39,483 nt of DNA from a virus (Duplodnaviria > Heunggongvirae > Uroviricota > Caudoviricetes): the IMG/VR virus record IMGVR_UViG_2563366928_000012, positions 1-39,483 of that record; one strand, 5' to 3'. This document shows, in pieces, positions 1-8,931 of this stretch; the first letter of the stretch is position 1, and each line of letters opens with the position of its first letter. A program made the position numbers and the translations under genes. Under the pieces are notes generated by a model. It ran no database searches. It saw only the letters and a list, made by a program, of their open reading frames with translations, and was not told where the DNA came from.

Positions 1-2946
1 TTAGTGCTTCCCTTCTATTAAGTCTAACCTAGCTTTTATCTTATCCATTTCTCTGCGCTGCCATGCCGCCTCGATATAGAATAAGAGATCAGGTCTGACC
101 CCCCATCTAGATCCTGCTGGCGTTATTTCAACGCGCTCAATGATGTCTTCTATTACCATCACTGGATTATCATCCTCATCAACAATGATGCTCCCGTCAT
201 TATCAGTCAGCGGCATTTCCCTTTGGCCAGTAATGACGTCATCATATACTGCGGGATAATCGTCATAGCAAAGAAAGGCATAGCGGCATGTTGTGCTTTC
301 TTCTTCCATGAGTCCGTGAGAAATAAGAACATCACGAAGTTGCTGCGCGATTACACCATGATGTATCCTCGCCCCTTCTTCCCCCTTTATAGCGACAGCG
401 TTCAGCCATTTATAAGCGATATACCTGACGTCACCCCAGGCATCCAGCAATGCTTCGTCAGGAGAGACCGGCTCTGTCTTTAATGTTCCGTCACTGGTAA
501 CCACAGGATTGGAGCCAAGATAAACTGTCGAGAACCTGTTTCCCGGACCACCAAGAGCATTTACATTATCAAGATAAGGTTTAACATCTCCGTTCTCAAA
601 AAGATGTTCGAGTGCGTTATATACCGCGCGACGTGGAGTACTGCTTCTGGAACCATGCAACGTTATCATTGCACCATCTGCTGAAGACGTTGTTTCACCG
701 CCGCTAACGATTAATCTCTGAGCGGTAACATCATCAGACGGTACTTTCTTCGCAATAATGGCGTAATTACCCTCAAGTTTGACTTCCGCGCGAACTTGTC
801 CTGATGTACCTGCATGGACAGTCAGTGACTGGACGGCAACATCATCTGTGAAATCAACGGGTACAGGAACCGTCCTCACGCCTGACGTCGACATAAAAGT
901 AGGAAGCGTTCTGTTAGGAGTGGCTCCGTAGACAAAATCCCTTGAAACAAATTCTTCCTGTTTAATTTTCACCCTGAAACAATACAAATCAGCCGGGTGA
1001 CCATCGTGAACATAAGGATATTTTCTGTTGTTATCCCCTATGCTCCATGGGTTTAGAAAGTCTTCCCCACCGAAAATGTAGTACAGCCAGTTGTCTTTGA
1101 TACAAACTGAACCAACACCAACCGCAGAGTTAACTATTCCGCCCTGATAAATCTGATCAGTAACATTAACCCACTCTACATTATCCAGACTCCACTCATT
1201 GACGTTAACTCTGGTCATAAATGTTCTTGGATAATTTCCTGCATAACGGTTATCAGGTTCTCCTCCTTCCCACTCACCAAATGCGCGCTCACTGCCAAAA
1301 ATAATCAGCTCATCGCCAACTTTGGCAAAAGGAAGGTTTGAGTGATGAACATTATTTGGGAAGCGAAGAGAATTCCATGATGTACCTAAATCAGAGCTTC
1401 TGTGCAATGAACTACCGGGTTGAGTACTTAATGTCCCCCTGGTCGTCAGATACAGAATGCCATCATAATATTTTACACATGGCTCAGATGCATTCGCCTC
1501 ATATTCTACAGGTATGCGTCTGCGAACAAAGCTACCAGGAGAACCGAAAGCATCAGAGAAATAGAGTATCCCAAGCTCGCGTGGACCAATATCACCATTA
1601 TGGTAGCCAACAGCAAAACTGTTATCGCTAATCGTCGCAAAACTGTGAATCTCAGTAACAGGAGTGCTTCCGTCAACAAAAGAAGGAATAGTTCCAAGAC
1701 TGGTTTTTCTCCATGGTGACGAGTGAAATGATGTGCCAAAACTCCAGTATCTACCCTCGTTATTCTGATCCACATCCTGGGTATTTTGCGTCGTAACTGT
1801 AAAGGTATTTTTATCAATAACAGTAGTCACCGTCATATTCCCGGTAACACCTGTAACACCAGAGTTTGAGAAGTTGACAAAATCACCAGCAAATAATCCG
1901 TGATCAGTAATGCGAATATAAGCGACTTGCTGATTTGCTGCTTTCGTTATACCACCATAAACGCGAAGGCTGCGACTCATTGGGCGATCCCACAACTCTG
2001 CAACCTGCAGTTTATTTCCTCTCACGGTCCGCGTCTCAATTACAGCAAAAAGGCGATTTCTGACAACCCCCATACTCATGCAGTGATAGTTAACTGTGGG
2101 ATAGTTTTCATGTAAATCTGTAAGCCATTCCGGCGTTGTCCAGGTCTTCCCGTCATCTCCTGAGCGAACCCATGCAACATGGAGGTTATTTACACCATGG
2201 CGGTCTCCAGCCATAAAAGGCGCATAGATGACATTGTCATATACAAACGTTTTATCCTGCGTCCAGGCGTTGTACCACGGTGTATCTGTAATTTTAAATA
2301 ACTCTCCCTGGATAAAATCTTCAGAAGCATAAAAAAGAGGCTGACCCGGTATTCTCTCAAATAAAAAACGAGCATTTTTAAATCGACTGACATCTGGAAG
2401 AGTTGATACTTTAAAAGTAAGCCCTCGCCCATCTATCTTTTCACCACCTGTTGCAACAGAAAGTAATTCTGATAGAGCTGATGTATCATCATGAACACCA
2501 TCACCAATAGCCCCCCAACCTCTTACATCATAACTGTCTCTCCATCTTGCTATCTGAAGTTTTGGGTATTTATTCGCTCCATCTGGGTCTTCTAATTGCC
2601 GCCGTAACTGATCAGGATCATACTTCAGCACATTCGGAAAATAGAACTGCTGCGCACCATACGCATCATAAACAGCCATAGAATGGCCTTGCACAGTTAC
2701 GAATTTGGCAATCTGTCCGTTATATACAGGATATCCAGCAGCGTTAATGATGATTGGTTGCGAAACAGGAACGTGAGAGCCGTCTTCGTTTTCCACATAA
2801 ACCTGAATCTGGTTTTCAGGATTTACAGGGTCAGTGTCAATTTTACCGATATAAATTTTGCCATTGGCTACGGCTTTAAAAGAACGCGCCATAGTGAAGA
2901 GTTGCGAAGGCATCGATACGATCACATTGGCTGTAATGTCTCTCAT
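1..2946 (-). CDS. Tailspike: P22-type head-binding N-terminus fused to endo-N-acylneuraminidase (endosialidase) with C-terminal intramolecular chaperone domain
   Basis: 981 aa ORF. N-terminus [11 protein letters not shown]...[21 protein letters not shown] matches recalled P22 gp9 head-binding domain. Sialidase Asp-box motifs SGDDGKTW and SSDLGTSW. C-terminal region resembles the autocleaving chaperone domain of endosialidase tailspikes. GGAG RBS upstream of ATG at 2946. Confidence 0.8.
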
Positions 2947-3046: not shown

Positions 3047-3949
3047 TCAGTAGTTATGTACTGAAGGAGGTAATTCTTTATTCTTAAGTCTCATCCATGC
3101 GGAAAGATTCGTTGGTCCGTCTGGCTCATTAATATCAACATCTCGTGTATGGTTGATTAAAACATCTCTCGCTATATCGATAATACGGGAGAACTCATAA
3201 CCGCAGTCATGACATCTGCCGGAATAGTTCGATTGAATTTGTTTCAGCGCCGGATACAGTTCGCGGAATAATGCCTGTGAGCGGTTGGCATAATCCCATA
3301 ACCATACAAGGCTGTTTGCTTCTTTTGCAGAAAGCTCGTTGACTTTCCTCTCTTGTTTGCCAATGAACTCACCTTCAAGCACTACCCTGTGGATGTACTC
3401 TACGGCTTGCGGTATCTGAGATGCATCAAGCTCTTCAATACTTTCCACATTGAAACGCTGATGAATCATTGCATAAGCTTCTGGGTACATTAGATGCTTT
3501 TTGCTGACCAGCATATTTACAGCATCACGAAGCGGAGTCCTGTCATCAACAGATGTTTTCTTACGTGCATTTTCTGCCTTTCCCTTTGTCCAGTAGTCAT
3601 GCAGCACAGTAAAGCATTCTTCCTGGTACTGAATCAGTTTATCGCGGATGTCAGCACGAACTTTCTCGGGGTTGATGCTGAACAGCCATCCATTTAACTT
3701 CTTCAAAGGAAGGCAGAGTAGCTTACGAAGCTTTCCATCAGCAGCAACCATATTCATATGAATACAGTTGAACTTATCTAGTTGTTTCATAAGTTTTTGT
3801 TGCTGAGTACCCCAGCTCATTCCGAGGTTTTCAACGATTGGCTTCATCGCAACATATGCAACTCCGGCAGCCATGGCGGTGATAATTTGCTGACCGTTGA
3901 ATGGTACGTAAGAGGTGTTCACTGCTTCTAAAATTGCTATACTATTCAT
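3047..3949 (-). CDS. ant: Antirepressor Ant (immI)
   Basis: 300 aa from internal ATG ([10 protein letters not shown]...) with GGAGAA RBS; position downstream of arc and upstream of tailspike as in P22. The longer track ORF start at 4015 is judged read-through. Confidence 0.7.
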
Positions 3950-4011: not shown

Positions 4012-4215
4012 TCAACTTTCTGATCTATCAGTTATATCTTTCCCTTCATATACTTCACCTATATTGCTAATGCTGGCAGAACATCCAAGATGCTTGTATC
4101 TTATGATGTCCAACACGCAGTCACTACACAGCATCCGACCTGTTTCTTTAGAGTAAATGTATGTTTGATCAGCGTCTGATTCGCTAATGCCGCAGAAACA
4201 ACATTCTTTACTCAT
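4012..4215 (-). CDS. Small Cys-rich (zinc-ribbon-like) protein inserted between arc and ant
   Basis: 67 aa with CCFCG, CSDC and a further Cys. Start ATG overlaps the arc stop (ATGA), suggesting translational coupling. Confidence 0.45.
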
Positions 4216-4364
4216 ACCATTACCCCCTCTCTCTTCAAGCTGTCTATCAGGCGCTTGATAACCTCTGAGTTAAACGACCTGCACTCTTCCTTTGCCCTGC
4301 TACCTATAGCATCCTTTAACGACTGCGGCATCCTTACCAAAATCTTACTTATTTCTTTCTCCAT
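4212..4364 (-). CDS. arc: Arc-like ribbon-helix-helix repressor
   Basis: 50 aa from ATG with GGAGGG RBS; motif CRSFNSEVIKRLIDSLKREG resembles P22 Arc (RSVNSE motif). Confidence 0.75.
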   Translation of the reverse strand: MEKEISKILVRMPQSLKDAIGSRAKEECRSFNSEVIKRLIDSLKREGVMV

Positions 4365-4400: not shown

Positions 4401-4478
4401 AAGATATCAAAGTGAGTATATCTAGTCAAAATTTTTTTGCATACACTTTGCTATCAAATTGAATACCAAAGGTGTGAT
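4401..4478. promoter_or_regulatory. Divergent arc/ant and mnt promoter-operator region
   Basis: Intergenic region between divergent arc and mnt; contains inverted repeat CAAAGTG ... CACTTTG and a GATATC palindrome. Confidence 0.4.
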
Positions 4479-4727
4479 ATGGCAAAGGGTGTGTCAATTT
4501 CTCCAACTACGGTAAGAATCCCTGAATCTTTACGCGAGGCTCTTGCTGTCAGAGCATCAAAAAATGGTCGCTCTGTTAACTCCGAGATCGTCATGATTTT
4601 GCAAGCCGCGATTGATGAAGATAGGTCGCCAAAGTCAGTTGAGTCATTTGCTCAGCAAGAAGCTGACAAATTCAAAGAGGCGCTGCTTGAGACGCTAAAG
4701 ACCATGTATGGTAAGGATGAAAAATAA
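4479..4727 (+). CDS. mnt: Mnt-like repressor
   Basis: Starts MAKGVSISPTTVRIPESLREALAVRASKNGRSVNSEIV; RHH with GRSVNSE motif as in P22 Mnt/Arc family. Stop overlaps next ATG by one base. Confidence 0.75.
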   Translation: MAKGVSISPTTVRIPESLREALAVRASKNGRSVNSEIVMILQAAIDEDRSPKSVESFAQQEADKFKEALLETLKTMYGKDEK

Positions 4728-5263
4728 TGCTGCACACAATTCATTTCTTATGCCCCGTTAACACTGCCACTGTTGGGCAACTTCAGAACCACTGTCTCAC
4801 CGCATTATCTCAAGGCGCAACTGAATTAAATATCCATATATCAAGTCAGGGAGGGGAAACTGCCGCTGGCTTTACTGCGTATAACTTTCTTAAGTCACTC
4901 CCTGTTACCGTTAGAACTCACAACATAAGCAATGTTGAATCCATAGCTAATATCGTTTTCCTGGCTGGCTCAGAACGTTTCGCAAACCCATTATCAAGAT
5001 TCCTGTTACATCCTCTATTATGGTGCTTTGCCTCCCCAGCCGCCGACCATGCCAGATTGAGAGAGTACGGGAAATGCCTCGATAACGATCTTGATCGCTT
5101 CGTTGAGACGTTCAATATCGACATCGGAACCCATATTAGGTGGGCATCCCTGATAGCAGACTCGACCATTTTGGATGCTAACAAGGCTCTTGAGCATGGC
5201 ATAATTAATTCCATAAAAACTGCAAGGCTGGCATCCAATCAGGCAAACTGGTGGGTTGTTTGA
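4727..5263 (+). CDS. ClpP-like (S14 Clp-fold) serine protease homolog
   Basis: 178 aa. ISSQGGETAAGFTAYNFL...SIANIVFLAGSERF...LLHP aligns by eye with ClpP (INSPGGVITAG...SMGAFLLTAG...MIHQP), with Ser and His conserved. Coupled to mnt. Confidence 0.55.
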   Translation: MLHTIHFLCPVNTATVGQLQNHCLTALSQGATELNIHISSQGGETAAGFTAYNFLKSLPVTVRTHNISNVESIANIVFLAGSERFANPLSRFLLHPLLWCFASPAADHARLREYGKCLDNDLDRFVETFNIDIGTHIRWASLIADSTILDANKALEHGIINSIKTARLASNQANWWVV

Positions 5264-5286
5264 TGGGTAAATCATGATTACTCCTT

Positions 5287-5320
5287 ATAAAAAACCCACC
5301 TGACGGTGGGATTTTCTTAT
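5287..5320. terminator. Bidirectional intrinsic terminator between convergent genes
   Basis: AAAAAA-CCCACC-TGAC-GGTGGG-ATTTTCTTATT; A-run upstream and T-run downstream of the stem. Confidence 0.6.
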
Positions 5321-6309
5321 TCTTTATCTTTTAAGTCTATGGTTCTTTGTCCAATAACCTTTTCATCTATGTATTTCTCATACTCTTCTCGAGTATCAGA
5401 AACCATTGCAATACCAGTAACCTTACCTATTTGGGTTCTAAGAGCCTTAACTCCAACCTCTGATAAAAACTGGTGTATTTTATCGTTTTTGCTGCCTTTT
5501 TCTTCTTTTGACGTTTTTGCTAAATTAAATACCTTTCCTTCACTTCTGGCTAATGGGTAATAAATGTGATCTATCGTAAGATATTTAAACGCCCATGGTC
5601 GCCCTCTAACTGGTTTGTCTATACCATACAGACGATACCAATGCTCATAAAGTTCAGGGGTGAACTCTCTTTCATACTCACGAGCCTCTTCAGCAACATA
5701 TCGCTTATATGCTTGAATTACCTCTTCTTTTGTTCTGTCATACCCTGCCAAAGCATAAACAAGCCCCTGAATGCCCGCCTTGGCTGATGCATCAATAATG
5801 ATTCTGGCTTGCTTAGCAATCCCTTCCTGACTGGAAAGCAACTTACCTTCAGCTTTAGCATTAGAGATTGCTCGACATAAATCAATTAATATTGTTACAT
5901 CGTAGCCATGTATTACAGGATTAGCTGGAGTGTTCGTGCCCGCCTGTTTGTATTGAAAAATAAGAGGATTTTCAAGTTTTGCCCTTAATTCATGCCCGAT
6001 ATACTGAGAAATAGTTTTCCCCTGAATAAACTTTGGCAACCTGCTGCCACCTTCGCCAAGACCAATCGCTTCTCCCATGCCTCTCTGGCTAATAACGGCA
6101 GTTTTGTTATCATCATTTAACACATAGCACTCAACATCAATCCCGAATTCATGCTGGAACGATCCCTTATGCGTAGCAATTAATGGTTTATCCTTCCATC
6201 TTGCAGCCGCTGCTTTCTTTGCTATTTCAGAACGCTGCTCTTTAGTCAGCGACTTTGCGCGAGCGATACCGCCCTTAGCTTTCCCTTCGCCACTTTTCTT
6301 TTCAGTCAT
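5317..6309 (-). CDS. Hypothetical 330-aa protein with basic N-terminal putative DNA-binding region (accessory cargo)
   Basis: Start MTEKKSGEGKAKGGIARAKSLTKEQRSEIAKKAAAARW; rest not recognised with certainty. Longer track ORF start at 6384 rejected. Confidence 0.55.
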   Translation of the reverse strand: MTEKKSGEGKAKGGIARAKSLTKEQRSEIAKKAAAARWKDKPLIATHKGSFQHEFGIDVECYVLNDDNKTAVISQRGMGEAIGLGEGGSRLPKFIQGKTISQYIGHELRAKLENPLIFQYKQAGTNTPANPVIHGYDVTILIDLCRAISNAKAEGKLLSSQEGIAKQARIIIDASAKAGIQGLVYALAGYDRTKEEVIQAYKRYVAEEAREYEREFTPELYEHWYRLYGIDKPVRGRPWAFKYLTIDHIYYPLARSEGKVFNLAKTSKEEKGSKNDKIHQFLSEVGVKALRTQIGKVTGIAMVSDTREEYEKYIDEKVIGQRTIDLKDKE

Positions 6310-6310
6310 A

Positions 6311-6400
6311 ATGCAAGCACCTTTATTGTGATGTATGCTTGCATTATATGCACTGTACACACATACAAGCAAGCATAAAACCAAAACAAAATGCTTGCAT
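6311..6400. promoter_or_regulatory. Operator-like inverted repeat array in divergent promoter region
   Basis: Four copies of an 8-9 bp motif as two inverted pairs: ATGCAAGCA (6311-6319) / TGCTTGCAT (6336-6344) and GCAAGCAT (6369-6376) / ATGCTTGC (6391-6398). Confidence 0.5.
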
Positions 6401-6465
6401 TACAACCGCGCTACTCCAACTACACATTATCATCTGGTATCCTGAGCAAAACTAAGGAGGTTGGT

Positions 6466-6795
6466 GTGCTTGAATGGTTTCTGTTGGCTGCATTAGTCGT
6501 TTCTGGTTTGGTGTATGAGTATCGAATGCACTCTCTAACAAAAAAAATAGGAATTCTAGAAAACGAATATTGTGCTCTCAAATCCTCACTGGAACGTGAG
6601 CAAGGGGACTTAAAAATCTCTCTGTCTAGCATTGAGCGTTCTATAGAGAGCTTAGAGGATAAGGTTGATCGTATAAAGAATGAGGATATTCATGATATTA
6701 AGGACGACATATCCTTCTTAAAATCTTGGTTGAAAAATGTTGGGAAAATTGCCACATCAACACGAGATAAGCTCAATCCATCCATGGATGACTAA
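6466..6795 (+). CDS. Small membrane-anchored coiled-coil protein (accessory cargo)
   Basis: GTG start 5 nt after AGGAGG RBS; N-terminal hydrophobic helix LEWFLLAALVVSGLVYEY followed by charged heptad-like region. Converges on gp16 stop. Confidence 0.5.
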   Translation: MLEWFLLAALVVSGLVYEYRMHSLTKKIGILENEYCALKSSLEREQGDLKISLSSIERSIESLEDKVDRIKNEDIHDIKDDISFLKSWLKNVGKIATSTRDKLNPSMDD

Positions 6796-8931
6796 TTACT
6801 CCTGTGCCATTCCGCTTAGCGATGCCACAATTCCAGCTCTTGCTAAACGCTGGAACTCTTCGTTTCCTAGTGCCTCGCGTATTGCTTTTACGGCGGCCTT
6901 ATTTGCCATAAATCTGCGTTCCGCCGCCGCTAATGCGCCATCACTTGCCCCAACCTTAACTGCCTTTGTTGCCTCTTGAACAGCCTTTTCAATAGCGTAA
7001 CGACCGCTTCTAGTTGCGGATAATTTCGCTATCGCTCCTTTTGCCATTGCATCAATTGCCCCACCTGCAGCGCCACCCGCTATTGCTCCAATAACGCCTC
7101 CTCCAGAGAACCCTGCGATAGTGCCAGTAGTTCTAAAAGCGCCAGACAATGCGCTCTCTAAAACTGGATGAAGGCCATTCTCAAGAGTGCTAATGGCTGG
7201 CATAGATCGCCCTGTCTGTTCAACATATCGAAGTGGCTTTGTTGCTGCTCGTGCAAGTTCTCCGTATGAACTTGTAATCCTGCCAAGTTCTGGAGAATAT
7301 CGACTAATTGCCTTCACGTTTTGTGGGGTAAGAATAGTCGCGATATGCTTAATTCCAGCCTCTTCAGACTTACCTCCGCGTACCCCTTGCGATACCGCAT
7401 CTTGTAATATTGATGCAATTGCTGGCGCGCGTTCCGACTCAGGTAGGGCGCTTATTATTTTATGGAACTGACCTGTTCCACTTTTTGCTGAACCCTGCAA
7501 CGCCTTAGAGCCATTAGTTACCAACTGATCAGTTGCAAGGTCTCTACCAAACGCTGCTTCAGCCTGTTCTTGTGCTGTAAATCTTGCTTTTGACAGATCA
7601 TTAGCTTTTTGCCAGTCATCAAGAAAACCGCCATTTTGAGCCATTATGCGCATATCTTCCGTTGCTGCATCACGAAGCTCAGCCATGCGCCTTGCCGTAT
7701 TTGCCTCACCAGACCTTATATACTTCTGCTCTGCGTCAGCAAGTTTACTTCGCCATGCCTTCATGGCATCAAACGTGATTCCTTTTTTACTAGTTTTAGC
7801 ATAAGCAGATGCGAATTGTTTCATCTCAGGAGTTAGCGGCATGCCGGCCAAAATATCACCCTGAATTGTAGCGTTCAGGTTTGACATTCTGGCCTTTGCG
7901 TCAGGCATCGTGGAGCGGACGCTATCCCATGCGGCCTTTTCTGAATTTTTCATTTTATCAATACTTGCCAAAACCCTTTGTTTTATGGCTGCACTTTTTT
8001 CTGATGCAGTTCCTGCTTCAGCCCCAAACTCATCCAATGCTGAGTTAAATTTCGACTCTATTTCACTGAATGCTTTGGTGTGTGCATCCTGTGTAATTCC
8101 GGGCTTTGACGCCAGAATCCCCTCCGCCTGAGCAAGACCACGACTACCTGATCTCATGCCAGGAGTTAATGCGTTGATATCTATTCCAGCAGTATCTGCT
8201 GCTTTTGCTATTTCGTCTGACACATTAGCTGACTGTCTGGCAATAATCTCTCTTCCTGTACCAGACTTTGCCATTTTCGAAACATCAGCAGCGGAATTTA
8301 TTGCCCCGCCACCAAGAACTTGAGGTGATTTAGAGGTTAAGATCCTTCCAGCCCCAGAAAGTATCCCCTGAGCACCAATATTGATACCACCGTTAATGGC
8401 AGCATTTTGTGCAAAGTCGCCCTCCTGATTTGCAGCATCAGCAAGAGAACCTGCAATCATGTTTCCTGCGGAACCGATATCTCCAGCGAGCTTTGCTGTC
8501 GCTCCAGCAGCTTTTGCCGCTGTGCCAATTGGCAGGAGATACCCACCAATTGTTTCACCGGCTTGCGCGTAAGGGTCTGTCGGTCGCTCGACAGGGCGAT
8601 AAACATCATCCAAAACCTTGGGGCCACCAAGCCCCTGGCTGATTGCATTAATCAGACTTGCGCCACCCTGCAATACGTCAAATGGTATGTTTACCAGACC
8701 ACGACCAGCCTGTTCTGCAATTTGCCCTGCACTTTGACCACCAGTGAGCCAATCGCCAGCTTGTTGCATCAATGATGGTTCTTCCCGTGTTGGTGCATTA
8801 TTGGCCTGATTAACTGTTTGTTGCTGAACAGCCTGACCAGCAAAATACTCATCAATGGCGGTGCCAATATCTTCCGTGCTCGTACCATCAGGAAAGGTAA
8901 ATGTCTTACCGTTTGCAGTAACTTTCATCAT
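6796..8931 (-). CDS. Ejection (injection) protein, P22 gp16-like
   Basis: 711 aa, Ala/Gly-rich, position after gp20 in the conserved P22 order 7-20-16. Confidence 0.65.

Follow-up and report, generated by a model that had tools for sequence, protein, structure and literature searches.

A truncated ClpP-like gene overlapping the mnt repressor gene of a P22-like prophage: relatives, spread and possible role

Among bacterial proteases ClpP has a central place, and it is also a target for drugs. The accessory isoforms that remodel it are, to our knowledge, known only as resident bacterial genes. We consider here a gene of the ClpP family carried by a virus, in IMG/VR record IMGVR_UViG_2563366928_000012. 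The 39,483 nucleotides of that record, referred to at their full length as the window, represent a P22-like (Lederbergvirus-type) prophage, shown in reverse orientation; the gene lies directly behind mnt, the maintenance repressor gene of the immI region, and shares one base with it. We think it probable that the gene encodes an N-terminally truncated peptidase subunit of the type of a bacterial protein, PpClpP1, and that it is a mobile accessory gene behind mnt; by analogy with PpClpP1, its product would form an ATPase-independent ring, possibly mixing with the ClpP of the host.

PpClpP1 comes from Pseudomonas plecoglossicida and is known from a cryo-electron microscopy structure (9UXT; PLoS Pathog 2026, PMC12900304). 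It is an N-terminally truncated ClpP whose catalytic "triad" reads Ser-His-Pro: the Ser and the His are essential, and the third residue is dispensable. Alone, the protein forms a homotetradecamer with a pore of 42.7 Å and low peptidase activity, and it binds neither ClpX nor acyldepsipeptides (ADEP); together with the canonical ClpP, PpClpP2, it forms a stable hetero-tetradecamer that is more active. Its deletion impairs growth and motility, and it is selectively inhibited by bortezomib (PMC12900304). The absence of the canonical Asp is shared by Listeria ClpP1, which has Asn in its place (PMC12900304).

The protein and its family

The first-pass annotation of the window had read the gene as a Clp-fold protease homolog, and both profile searches and structure prediction agree with it. 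The Pfam family PF00574 (CLP_protease) matches residues 24-165 at E=2.2e-11; the score of 44.4 bits exceeds the cut-off of 20.2. A model of the protein built by AlphaFold2 (AF2) on 46 homologues, with a predicted local distance difference test score (pLDDT) of 91.9 and a predicted template modelling score (pTM) of 0.88, gives a ClpP alpha/beta fold with its handle region. When this model is submitted to Foldseek, the template modelling (TM) score reaches 0.92 with 9UXT, at a root mean square deviation of 1.8 Å and 38% identity, and 0.77-0.82 with the ClpPs of E. coli, S. aureus and Listeria. A phmmer search of the PDB aligns 9UXT over residues 3-175 with E=1.6e-35, and the canonical ClpPs with values from 1e-7 to 1e-4.

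Other collections give weaker matches. The NCBIfam ClpP models score 19-40 bits, far below their cut-offs of 228-361, and the model Clp_rel_HeadMat (NF045542) scores 49.3 bits for a cut-off of 120. The best PHROG match is phrog_94, "head maturation protease" (E=7e-21). Among viral predicted structures, the best fold matches in BFVD are generic phage ClpP-like proteins with at most 26% identity, and the phage ClpP-like proteins reached by tblastn have E-values of about 1e-6 and at most 30% identity. The homology as such was known before: RefSeq names the gene "ATP-dependent Clp protease proteolytic subunit".

The catalytic residues had been said to be apparently retained, and their alignment gives a divided answer. 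For this mapping, the E. coli ClpP sequence was verified against PDB 3MT6 and aligned with the 46-member family; E. coli positions are given in mature numbering. Ser72 corresponds to the catalytic Ser97 and His95 to the catalytic His122, and each of them is invariant in the 46 homologues. The third member of the triad is not kept: the position of Asp171 is occupied by Ser146 in the window protein, by Ala (24), Ser (20) or Thr (2) in the family, and by Pro in PpClpP1. The residue next to it, Asp145, is not conserved in the family.

The N-terminus is missing as well. The protein starts at a position aligned to residue 38 of the E. coli precursor, so that the propeptide and mature residues 1-23, with the axial loops and the start of helix A, are absent. 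At the positions that we take to form the docking pocket for ClpX and ADEP, the substitutions are Y60N, Y62H, F82S, I90H, L114N and L189K, and L23 is lost with the missing N-terminus; only two positions are still hydrophobic (M92I and F112F). Judged by this alignment, the protein would be an enzyme relying on Ser and His with no Asp, and it lacks the parts through which ClpP is coupled to its ATPases: a copy shortened, yet apparently active. The ratio of non-synonymous to synonymous substitution rates (dN/dS) is 0.08 when the gene is compared with an 80%-identical copy from Pectobacterium, which indicates strong purifying selection: the gene is being maintained.

The family to which the protein belongs can be delimited by an exhaustive profile search. 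At E<=1e-30 it returns 61 clusters, at the 50% identity level, most of them of about 180-190 amino acids; at E<=1e-10 it returns 2137 clusters, grading into canonical ClpP. Pseudomonas, Azotobacter and Stutzerimonas have conserved PpClpP1-type proteins, at 65-89% identity, whose genes, where two Pseudomonas lineages were examined, are chromosomal and stand beside genes for a KGG general stress protein and for a DUF6555 protein. The phage copies form a branch of their own within a family of short ClpP paralogues, whose only characterised member is a bacterial gene of housekeeping or stress type.

The neighbourhood of the Pseudomonas genes is worth recording for itself: in loci L100-L104, at least one KGG-repeat gene and a DUF6555 gene flank the PpClpP1-type gene (around 6001-6552), and this neighbourhood is absent from the text of the structure paper (PMC12900304). 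The idea that PpClpP1 is an unrecognised prophage gene was considered and rejected, given the non-phage chromosomal neighbourhood in both lineages.

The unit behind mnt and its spread

The coordinates of the open reading frames (ORFs) and of a hairpin divide the span 4479-5320 into mnt, the ClpP-like gene and a terminator (Table 1). The stop/start overlap TAATG, on which the first-pass annotation had based a translational coupling of the two genes, is real in the sequence. The window Mnt contains the Pfam Arc domain (E=1e-10) and has the same size as P22 Mnt, with 36% identity over the full length (E=8e-14). Its gene is divergent from arc and ant, as in P22, whose annotation describes Mnt as the repressor of the promoter Pant; in that phage, Pant and Pmnt overlap at the place where the window has a Pant-like promoter. 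One label in the databases calls for caution: P22 mnt (NC_002371) and PHROG 2685/795 appear as "partition protein ATPase", a propagated mis-annotation of an 83-amino-acid ribbon-helix-helix repressor.

Downstream, the unit is closed by the hairpin, which has a 6-bp GC-rich stem with A/T runs on both sides, obtains a terminator score on both strands and stands where the annotation of P22 places the mnt terminator. Expression of the ClpP-like gene together with the lysogenic repressor, as had been claimed, is the natural reading and probably the correct one, since the gene overlaps mnt, is placed between mnt and the terminator, and is preceded by an mnt in which a consensus scan found no promoter-like site. 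Also as described at first, the gene lies away from the morphogenesis cluster. Relative to that cluster it is antisense, on the strand of mnt and opposite to ant and the tailspike gene on one side and to gene 16 on the other. In the window, the unit is thus of the "moron" type, running against the lytic genes beside it and ending at a terminator.

Table 1. Positions of the ClpP-like gene and of the features around it in the window
Feature	Position	Strand	Remarks
Tailspike gene	1-2946	-	
ant, antirepressor	3047-3949	-	Pfam P22_AR_N E=8e-45, P22_AR_C E=2e-27; ATG at 3949, longest ORF to 4015
orf67, small CxxC ORF between arc and ant	4012-4215	-	67 amino acids, two CxxC pairs, PHROG 7150 E=1e-49
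arc	4212-4364	-	Pfam Arc E=8.5e-12; same 50-amino-acid gene annotated by RefSeq in strain AR_0017
Pant-like promoter, into arc and ant	4401-4429	-	TTGACT-17-TATCTT, consensus scan
mnt, ribbon-helix-helix maintenance repressor, first gene of the unit	4479-4727	+	82 amino acids
AAGGA Shine-Dalgarno of the ClpP-like gene, within the 3' end of mnt	4713-4717	+	9 nucleotides before ATG 4727
TAATG stop/start overlap	4725-4729	+	TAA 4725-4727, ATG 4727-4729; one base common
ClpP-family gene, N-terminally truncated, PpClpP1-type	4727-5263	+	178 amino acids
Codon of Ser72	4940-4942	+	aligned with E. coli mature ClpP catalytic Ser97
Codon of His95	5009-5011	+	aligned with catalytic His122
Codon of Cys100	5024-5026	+	
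Codon of Ser146	5162-5164	+	position of catalytic Asp171; Asp not kept
Hairpin terminator, bidirectional, closing the mnt-ClpP-like unit	5295-5310	both	CCCACC-TGAC-GGTGGG
Variable cargo slot, terminator to gene 16	5317-6795	.	P63C-domain ORF and orf134; Pfam and PHROG matches
P63C-domain ORF	5317-6384	-	355 amino acids, PHROG 2384 (function unknown)
orf134	6391-6795	+	134 codons; hydrophobic N-terminal stretch; low-scoring coiled-coil family matches, PHROG 5962
Gene-16-type injection protein	6796-8931	-	

In P22 the order of genes is 16, sieA (with its own promoter), the mnt terminator, orf59a, mnt, arc, ant and 9. Because orf59a precedes the mnt terminator and sieA lies beyond it, the ClpP-like gene occupies the slot of orf59a, inside the mnt transcript. 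Its first description as standing at the position of sieA therefore holds for the region, approximately, and not for the slot: the exact equivalent is orf59a, and the positional equivalent of sieA is formed by the P63C-domain ORF and orf134. This second slot is variable in related prophages: strain HH97 has a Panacea-domain protein there, and AR_0017 three small ORFs. Where the window has orf67, between arc and ant, the sar antisense-RNA region is found in P22.

P22 itself has no ClpP-like gene, since orf59a is found there instead. A more telling comparison is provided by Salmonella phage S.Kent 1-2-1 (locus L105, 2182-2744), which has the same mnt allele, with one substitution, followed by an unrelated protein of 105 amino acids. 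This protein has a signal peptide (MKRIAILLLLCLSSIANA...), its gene overlaps mnt by 4 nucleotides (ATGA), and it has no match in Pfam or PADLOC. Since an unrelated gene also overlaps mnt there, the position immediately after mnt is one at which translationally coupled cargo is exchanged. Similarity between the window and S.Kent 1-2-1 stops at the mnt stop codon; on the right-hand side, similarity to other phages resumes at the terminator, with matches to phage Emek. These sharp junctions make the ClpP-like gene a discrete exchangeable module. S.Kent 1-2-1 also has, between mnt and gene 16, an ORF of 121 amino acids with a HECAH motif.

Phage E212 (locus L003, 4516-5033) offers a second comparison. 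In it, an IS21-type IstB remnant (ORF 4752-5033, minus strand) replaces arc, the greater part of ant and almost the whole of mnt, whose last codons (…YGKDEK) are left before an intact ClpP-like gene. By its presence and absence among related phages and its sharp exchange junctions, the ClpP-like gene is a mobile accessory gene, or moron. It does not belong to the conserved structural genes: it is missing from P22, S.Kent 1-2-1 has an unrelated gene in its place behind the same mnt, and a Citrobacter prophage that carries a copy has a Peptidase_S78 prohead protease of its own.

We now turn to the copies found elsewhere. Of 5426 complete E. coli genomes, 128 contain a near-identical one (97-100%), always on the chromosome, and 126 of these matches cover at least 80% of the gene; the adjoining gene is nearly always annotated "Arc family". 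The window allele reads LLWCFAS where the commoner E. coli allele reads LLWGFAT. Copies are also found in phages EC.P3, phiv205-1 and E212, and in lambda-like PhiR12 phages. The neighbourhoods of 98 loci were compared by script, yielding 41 distinct neighbourhoods of copies with 79% identity or more to the window protein and 46 of copies with 51-75%.

In the first of these groups, whose hosts are P22-like and lambda-like prophages, mnt is directly upstream with the one-base overlap in 36 of 41 neighbourhoods, including that of the 80%-identical Pectobacterium copy, which has a Bro-N antirepressor in place of Ant. Given this conservation and the dN/dS of 0.08, the association of mnt with the ClpP-like gene is not a matter of chance. 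A complete cassette of ant, arc, mnt and the ClpP-like gene is found between the tail-tip genes K and L of lambda-like phages (PhiR12_1, locus L002, 3606-5618; further loci L020, L024-L026, L032 and L037-L041). It is 98-100% identical to the cassette of P22-like prophages, so that the immI module moves as a unit between phage types.

The second group is organised otherwise. An mnt-like gene is upstream in none of the 46 neighbourhoods, and in 29 of them both flanking genes are on the opposite strand. The link with Mnt is thus specific to a lineage, and not intrinsic to the family. Stand-alone copies occupy five other kinds of prophage site: from the lysis cassette to the terminase or HNH genes (Klebsiella, Citrobacter and others), beside the N antiterminator (Proteus), between tail-fibre and lysis genes (Chromobacterium), beside a tail-fibre assembly gene (locus L097), and, within Mu-like tail modules, between the tape-measure gene and a gene for a Mu-type DNA-circularisation protein (Pantoea and, separately, locus L071). 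Nineteen stand-alone loci were inspected, and hairpins lie near the gene in many of them, not in all.

Many stand-alone copies have a signal of their own. A 13-bp palindrome TGAA-N5-TTCA (e.g. TGAAATTATTTCA) is found 80-91 nucleotides upstream of their start codons; it is present in 19 of 41 distinct upstream regions, compared with 3.7% of random 260-nucleotide windows, and it is absent from the window copy. The loci are L006-L008, L013-L016, L052/L053, L058-L063, L066/L067, L074 and L092/L093/L095. In some of them a -35-like hexamer, TTGAAT, follows the palindrome. The palindrome may be a LysR-type T-N11-A box or a MetR-like box. A further observation concerns a clade from E. coli prophages, at 52% identity to the window protein, in which a gene of 182 amino acids precedes the ClpP-like gene on the same strand (locus L081, 5374-5922, plus strand; also L080 and L082-L086): it has a sub-threshold Abi_2 match (E=0.04) and no PADLOC match.

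What the subunit may do in a lysogen

By the gene layout, the accessory peptidase subunit proposed above should be made in the lysogen along with the maintenance repressor, from a shared transcript and by coupled translation. If PpClpP1 is taken as a guide, it would assemble into heptameric rings, and these into tetradecamers whose pore is wide and open. Such particles would have a weak peptidase activity without any ATPase partner, the protein itself being unable to bind ClpX. A ring of this kind might also pair with a ring of the host ClpP: the hybrid would be driven by ClpX from the host side, and its output would be altered. The net effect would be a change of Clp-dependent proteolysis imposed by the prophage on the lysogen.

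Pushed further, the same scheme yields a "Trojan" ClpP ring, which we regard as rather unlikely in this strong form. Spread by temperate phages of Enterobacterales and made in the lysogen, here from the promoter of mnt, the subunit would stack on host ClpP heptamers, and the resulting hybrid ClpXP or ClpAP, having one ungated face blind to the ATPase, would reprogram proteolysis to the benefit of the prophage, for example through exclusion or a tighter control of induction.

Several points weigh against the accessory-subunit reading. The identity to PpClpP1 is about 38-50%, and the third residue of the triad differs: it is Ser here and Ala, Ser or Thr throughout the phage clade, never the Pro of PpClpP1. 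The inter-ring sensor residues of the Asp170/Arg171 type found in canonical ClpP are not conserved, which makes compatibility with a host ClpP ring uncertain. In the handle strand, the window allele has Cys100, where 39 of the 46 relatives and E. coli ClpP have Gly. The nine E. coli positions used for the docking pocket follow the structural literature on ADEP and ClpP and are presumably the relevant ones. Finally, co-transcription is argued from the gene layout and by analogy with P22: the consensus scan found no sigma-70 match for Pmnt upstream of mnt, and as manual inspection gave weak candidates only, no Pmnt promoter is claimed.

Assuming that the protein is indeed such a subunit, its benefit to the phage is a separate question. 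The best placed answer, though a tentative one, is lysogenic conversion: an extra ClpP-type subunit would tune proteostasis in the lysogen or its survival under stress, much as the chromosomal Pseudomonas relatives seem to do in their hosts, and would play no direct part in conflicts between phages. The bacterial relatives point in this direction, being conserved and chromosomal, with KGG and DUF6555 genes beside them in the two lineages examined, and the deletion phenotype of PpClpP1 concerns growth and motility (PMC12900304). The palindrome upstream of many stand-alone copies suggests a regulator of host type; however, it is missing from the window copy, which would depend on Pmnt. Likewise, phiv205-1, which carries the gene, raises the biofilm formation and adhesion of its host (PMC10052878), but this is a phenotype of the whole prophage and its effects have been attributed to other genes.

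The first-pass annotation had called a role in defence or anti-defence plausible; superinfection exclusion, or some other anti-phage effect, we judge less likely than conversion. An open-pore protease, alone or with the host ClpP, would degrade proteins of an incoming phage, such as unfolded ejection proteins or early proteins, or would trigger an abortive proteolysis. The idea is possible, and what suggests it is location only. Lysogen-oriented slots are also used by exclusion genes, both in the region from mnt to 16, where P22 has sieA, and in the slot after the lysis cassette; neighbours at these hotspots are variable and include the Panacea-domain protein and the 182-amino-acid gene with its faint resemblance to Abi_2; and the gene is spread over unrelated prophages. 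Cargo slots, however, are common to morons of other kinds: lambda bor, just after the lysis genes, is a moron not known to act in defence.

Direct support for defence or anti-defence did not emerge. The ClpP-like protein matches no family of PADLOC-DB 2.0 at E<=0.1, four other cargo-slot proteins that were checked have no PADLOC match, and the literature search found no paper tying the PpClpP1-type or phage ClpP family to defence. The closest relatives are chromosomal Pseudomonas genes that stand by KGG stress genes and not in defence islands, and there is no evident phage-sensing component.

An explanation internal to immI is improbable. The protease, co-expressed with Mnt, would be a second safety layer that removes leaky Ant, or Arc, and stabilises lysogeny. 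Copies at 79% identity or more do travel with the ant-arc-mnt cassette, including into the K/L site of lambda-like phages, and the overlap with mnt is conserved. However, neither mnt nor an immI region is found in any of the 46 distant neighbourhoods, the Pectobacterium copy accompanies Bro-N, which is another antirepressor family, and mnt functions without a ClpP-like gene both in S.Kent 1-2-1, with the same allele, and in P22. The protein, moreover, brings with it neither a module for substrate recognition nor an ATPase partner. On these grounds we rank the roles as follows: host physiology or stress comes first, exclusion or defence second and clearance of Ant third, and for the remainder we make no call.

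Two further candidates were rejected. A displaced or decaying prohead protease might be suspected from the best PHROG match, phrog_94, and from the annotation "head maturation protease" in phiv205-1, but the NF045542 score is below its cut-off, the location and the strand are wrong, the bacterial relative is far closer and the dN/dS speaks against decay; a role in capsid maturation is ruled out by the Citrobacter prophage with its own Peptidase_S78 enzyme, and P22-type assembly uses no protease. A toxin-antitoxin-like pair, in which mnt would be the ribbon-helix-helix antitoxin and the larger downstream gene the toxin, recalls type II operons by the small first gene and the stop/start overlap, yet it is dismissed as well: all 46 distant neighbourhoods lack an upstream ribbon-helix-helix gene, E212 has lost mnt and still has an intact ClpP-like gene, the repression of Pant is a known function of Mnt itself, and the same mnt allele is paired with an unrelated gene in S.Kent 1-2-1.

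Comparison with known systems

Our literature search turned up a single relevant paper, the one on the PpClpP1 structure (PMC12900304), and none on a ClpP of this type carried by a prophage; the SieA paper makes no mention of a ClpP-like gene. We found no description of a truncated ClpP isoform as cargo of Enterobacterales prophages, of its clade in the mnt operon that moves with immI between P22-like and lambda-like phages, or of its distinctness from prohead proteases. The molecular identity of the gene is ordinary: what is unusual, and widespread, is the setting of a phage-carried ClpP subunit that is probably expressed in the lysogen. Temperate phages carry a truncated ClpP isoform as mobile cargo, which occurs in about 2% of complete E. 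coli genomes and, among the further lineages examined, in at least nine, including Klebsiella, Proteus, Pectobacterium, Citrobacter, Pantoea and Chromobacterium.

If the subunit does pair with host ClpP, prophages would alter the proteolysis of their host from within. This would matter for the induction of prophages, for exclusion between phages, for tolerance to stress and for how cells respond to compounds that target ClpP. Should the "Trojan" ring exist, it would be the first phage-encoded structural subunit to take over a chambered protease of the host. With the structure of a homologue solved and the catalytic residues plain, the question is directly testable.

Five kinds of known systems can be set beside this locus. 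With the ClpP-type prohead proteases (PHROG 94, NF045542), the window protein has a distant similarity of sequence and fold; it differs from them in falling below the family cut-off, in having no fusion to scaffold or capsid and in being encoded outside the head module, antisense to the late genes. With the immI cargo of P22 (orf59a, sieA) and with morons in general, it shares the same slot logic, between mnt and the mnt terminator, and the presence or absence among related phages. Unlike orf59a and SieA, to which it is unrelated in sequence, it would be a cytoplasmic protease subunit and not a membrane exclusion protein.

Canonical ClpP, the S14 peptidase of E. coli, has the same fold (TM about 0.8), the PF00574 match and the aligned catalytic Ser and His. 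The identity, however, is about 20%, and the window protein has no Asp, propeptide or axial loops; of the nine docking-pocket residues checked, six are polar in it and one belongs to the missing N-terminus.

PpClpP1 is the closest solved relative. The lengths are similar (178 amino acids here and 183 there), both proteins begin at strand beta-1 after the same N-terminal truncation, without axial loops, and both keep the Ser and His and have lost the canonical Asp. The genomic setting sets them apart: PpClpP1-type genes are chromosomal, whereas the window gene and the copies of the nine enterobacterial and Chromobacterium lineages checked are all in prophages.

The accessory ClpPs, such as Listeria ClpP1/2, Mycobacterium ClpP1P2, P. 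aeruginosa ClpP2 and the Streptomyces sets, would provide the nearest parallel in manner of action, since in them a weak or inactive second isoform modifies the main protease through hetero-tetradecamers. They are resident genes of bacteria, whereas the window gene, known here from its sequence, is carried by a phage and wired to a lysogeny repressor. By analogy, the window protein would work most like the accessory ClpPs that form mixed rings: Listeria ClpP1, Mycobacterium ClpP1P2 and PpClpP1.

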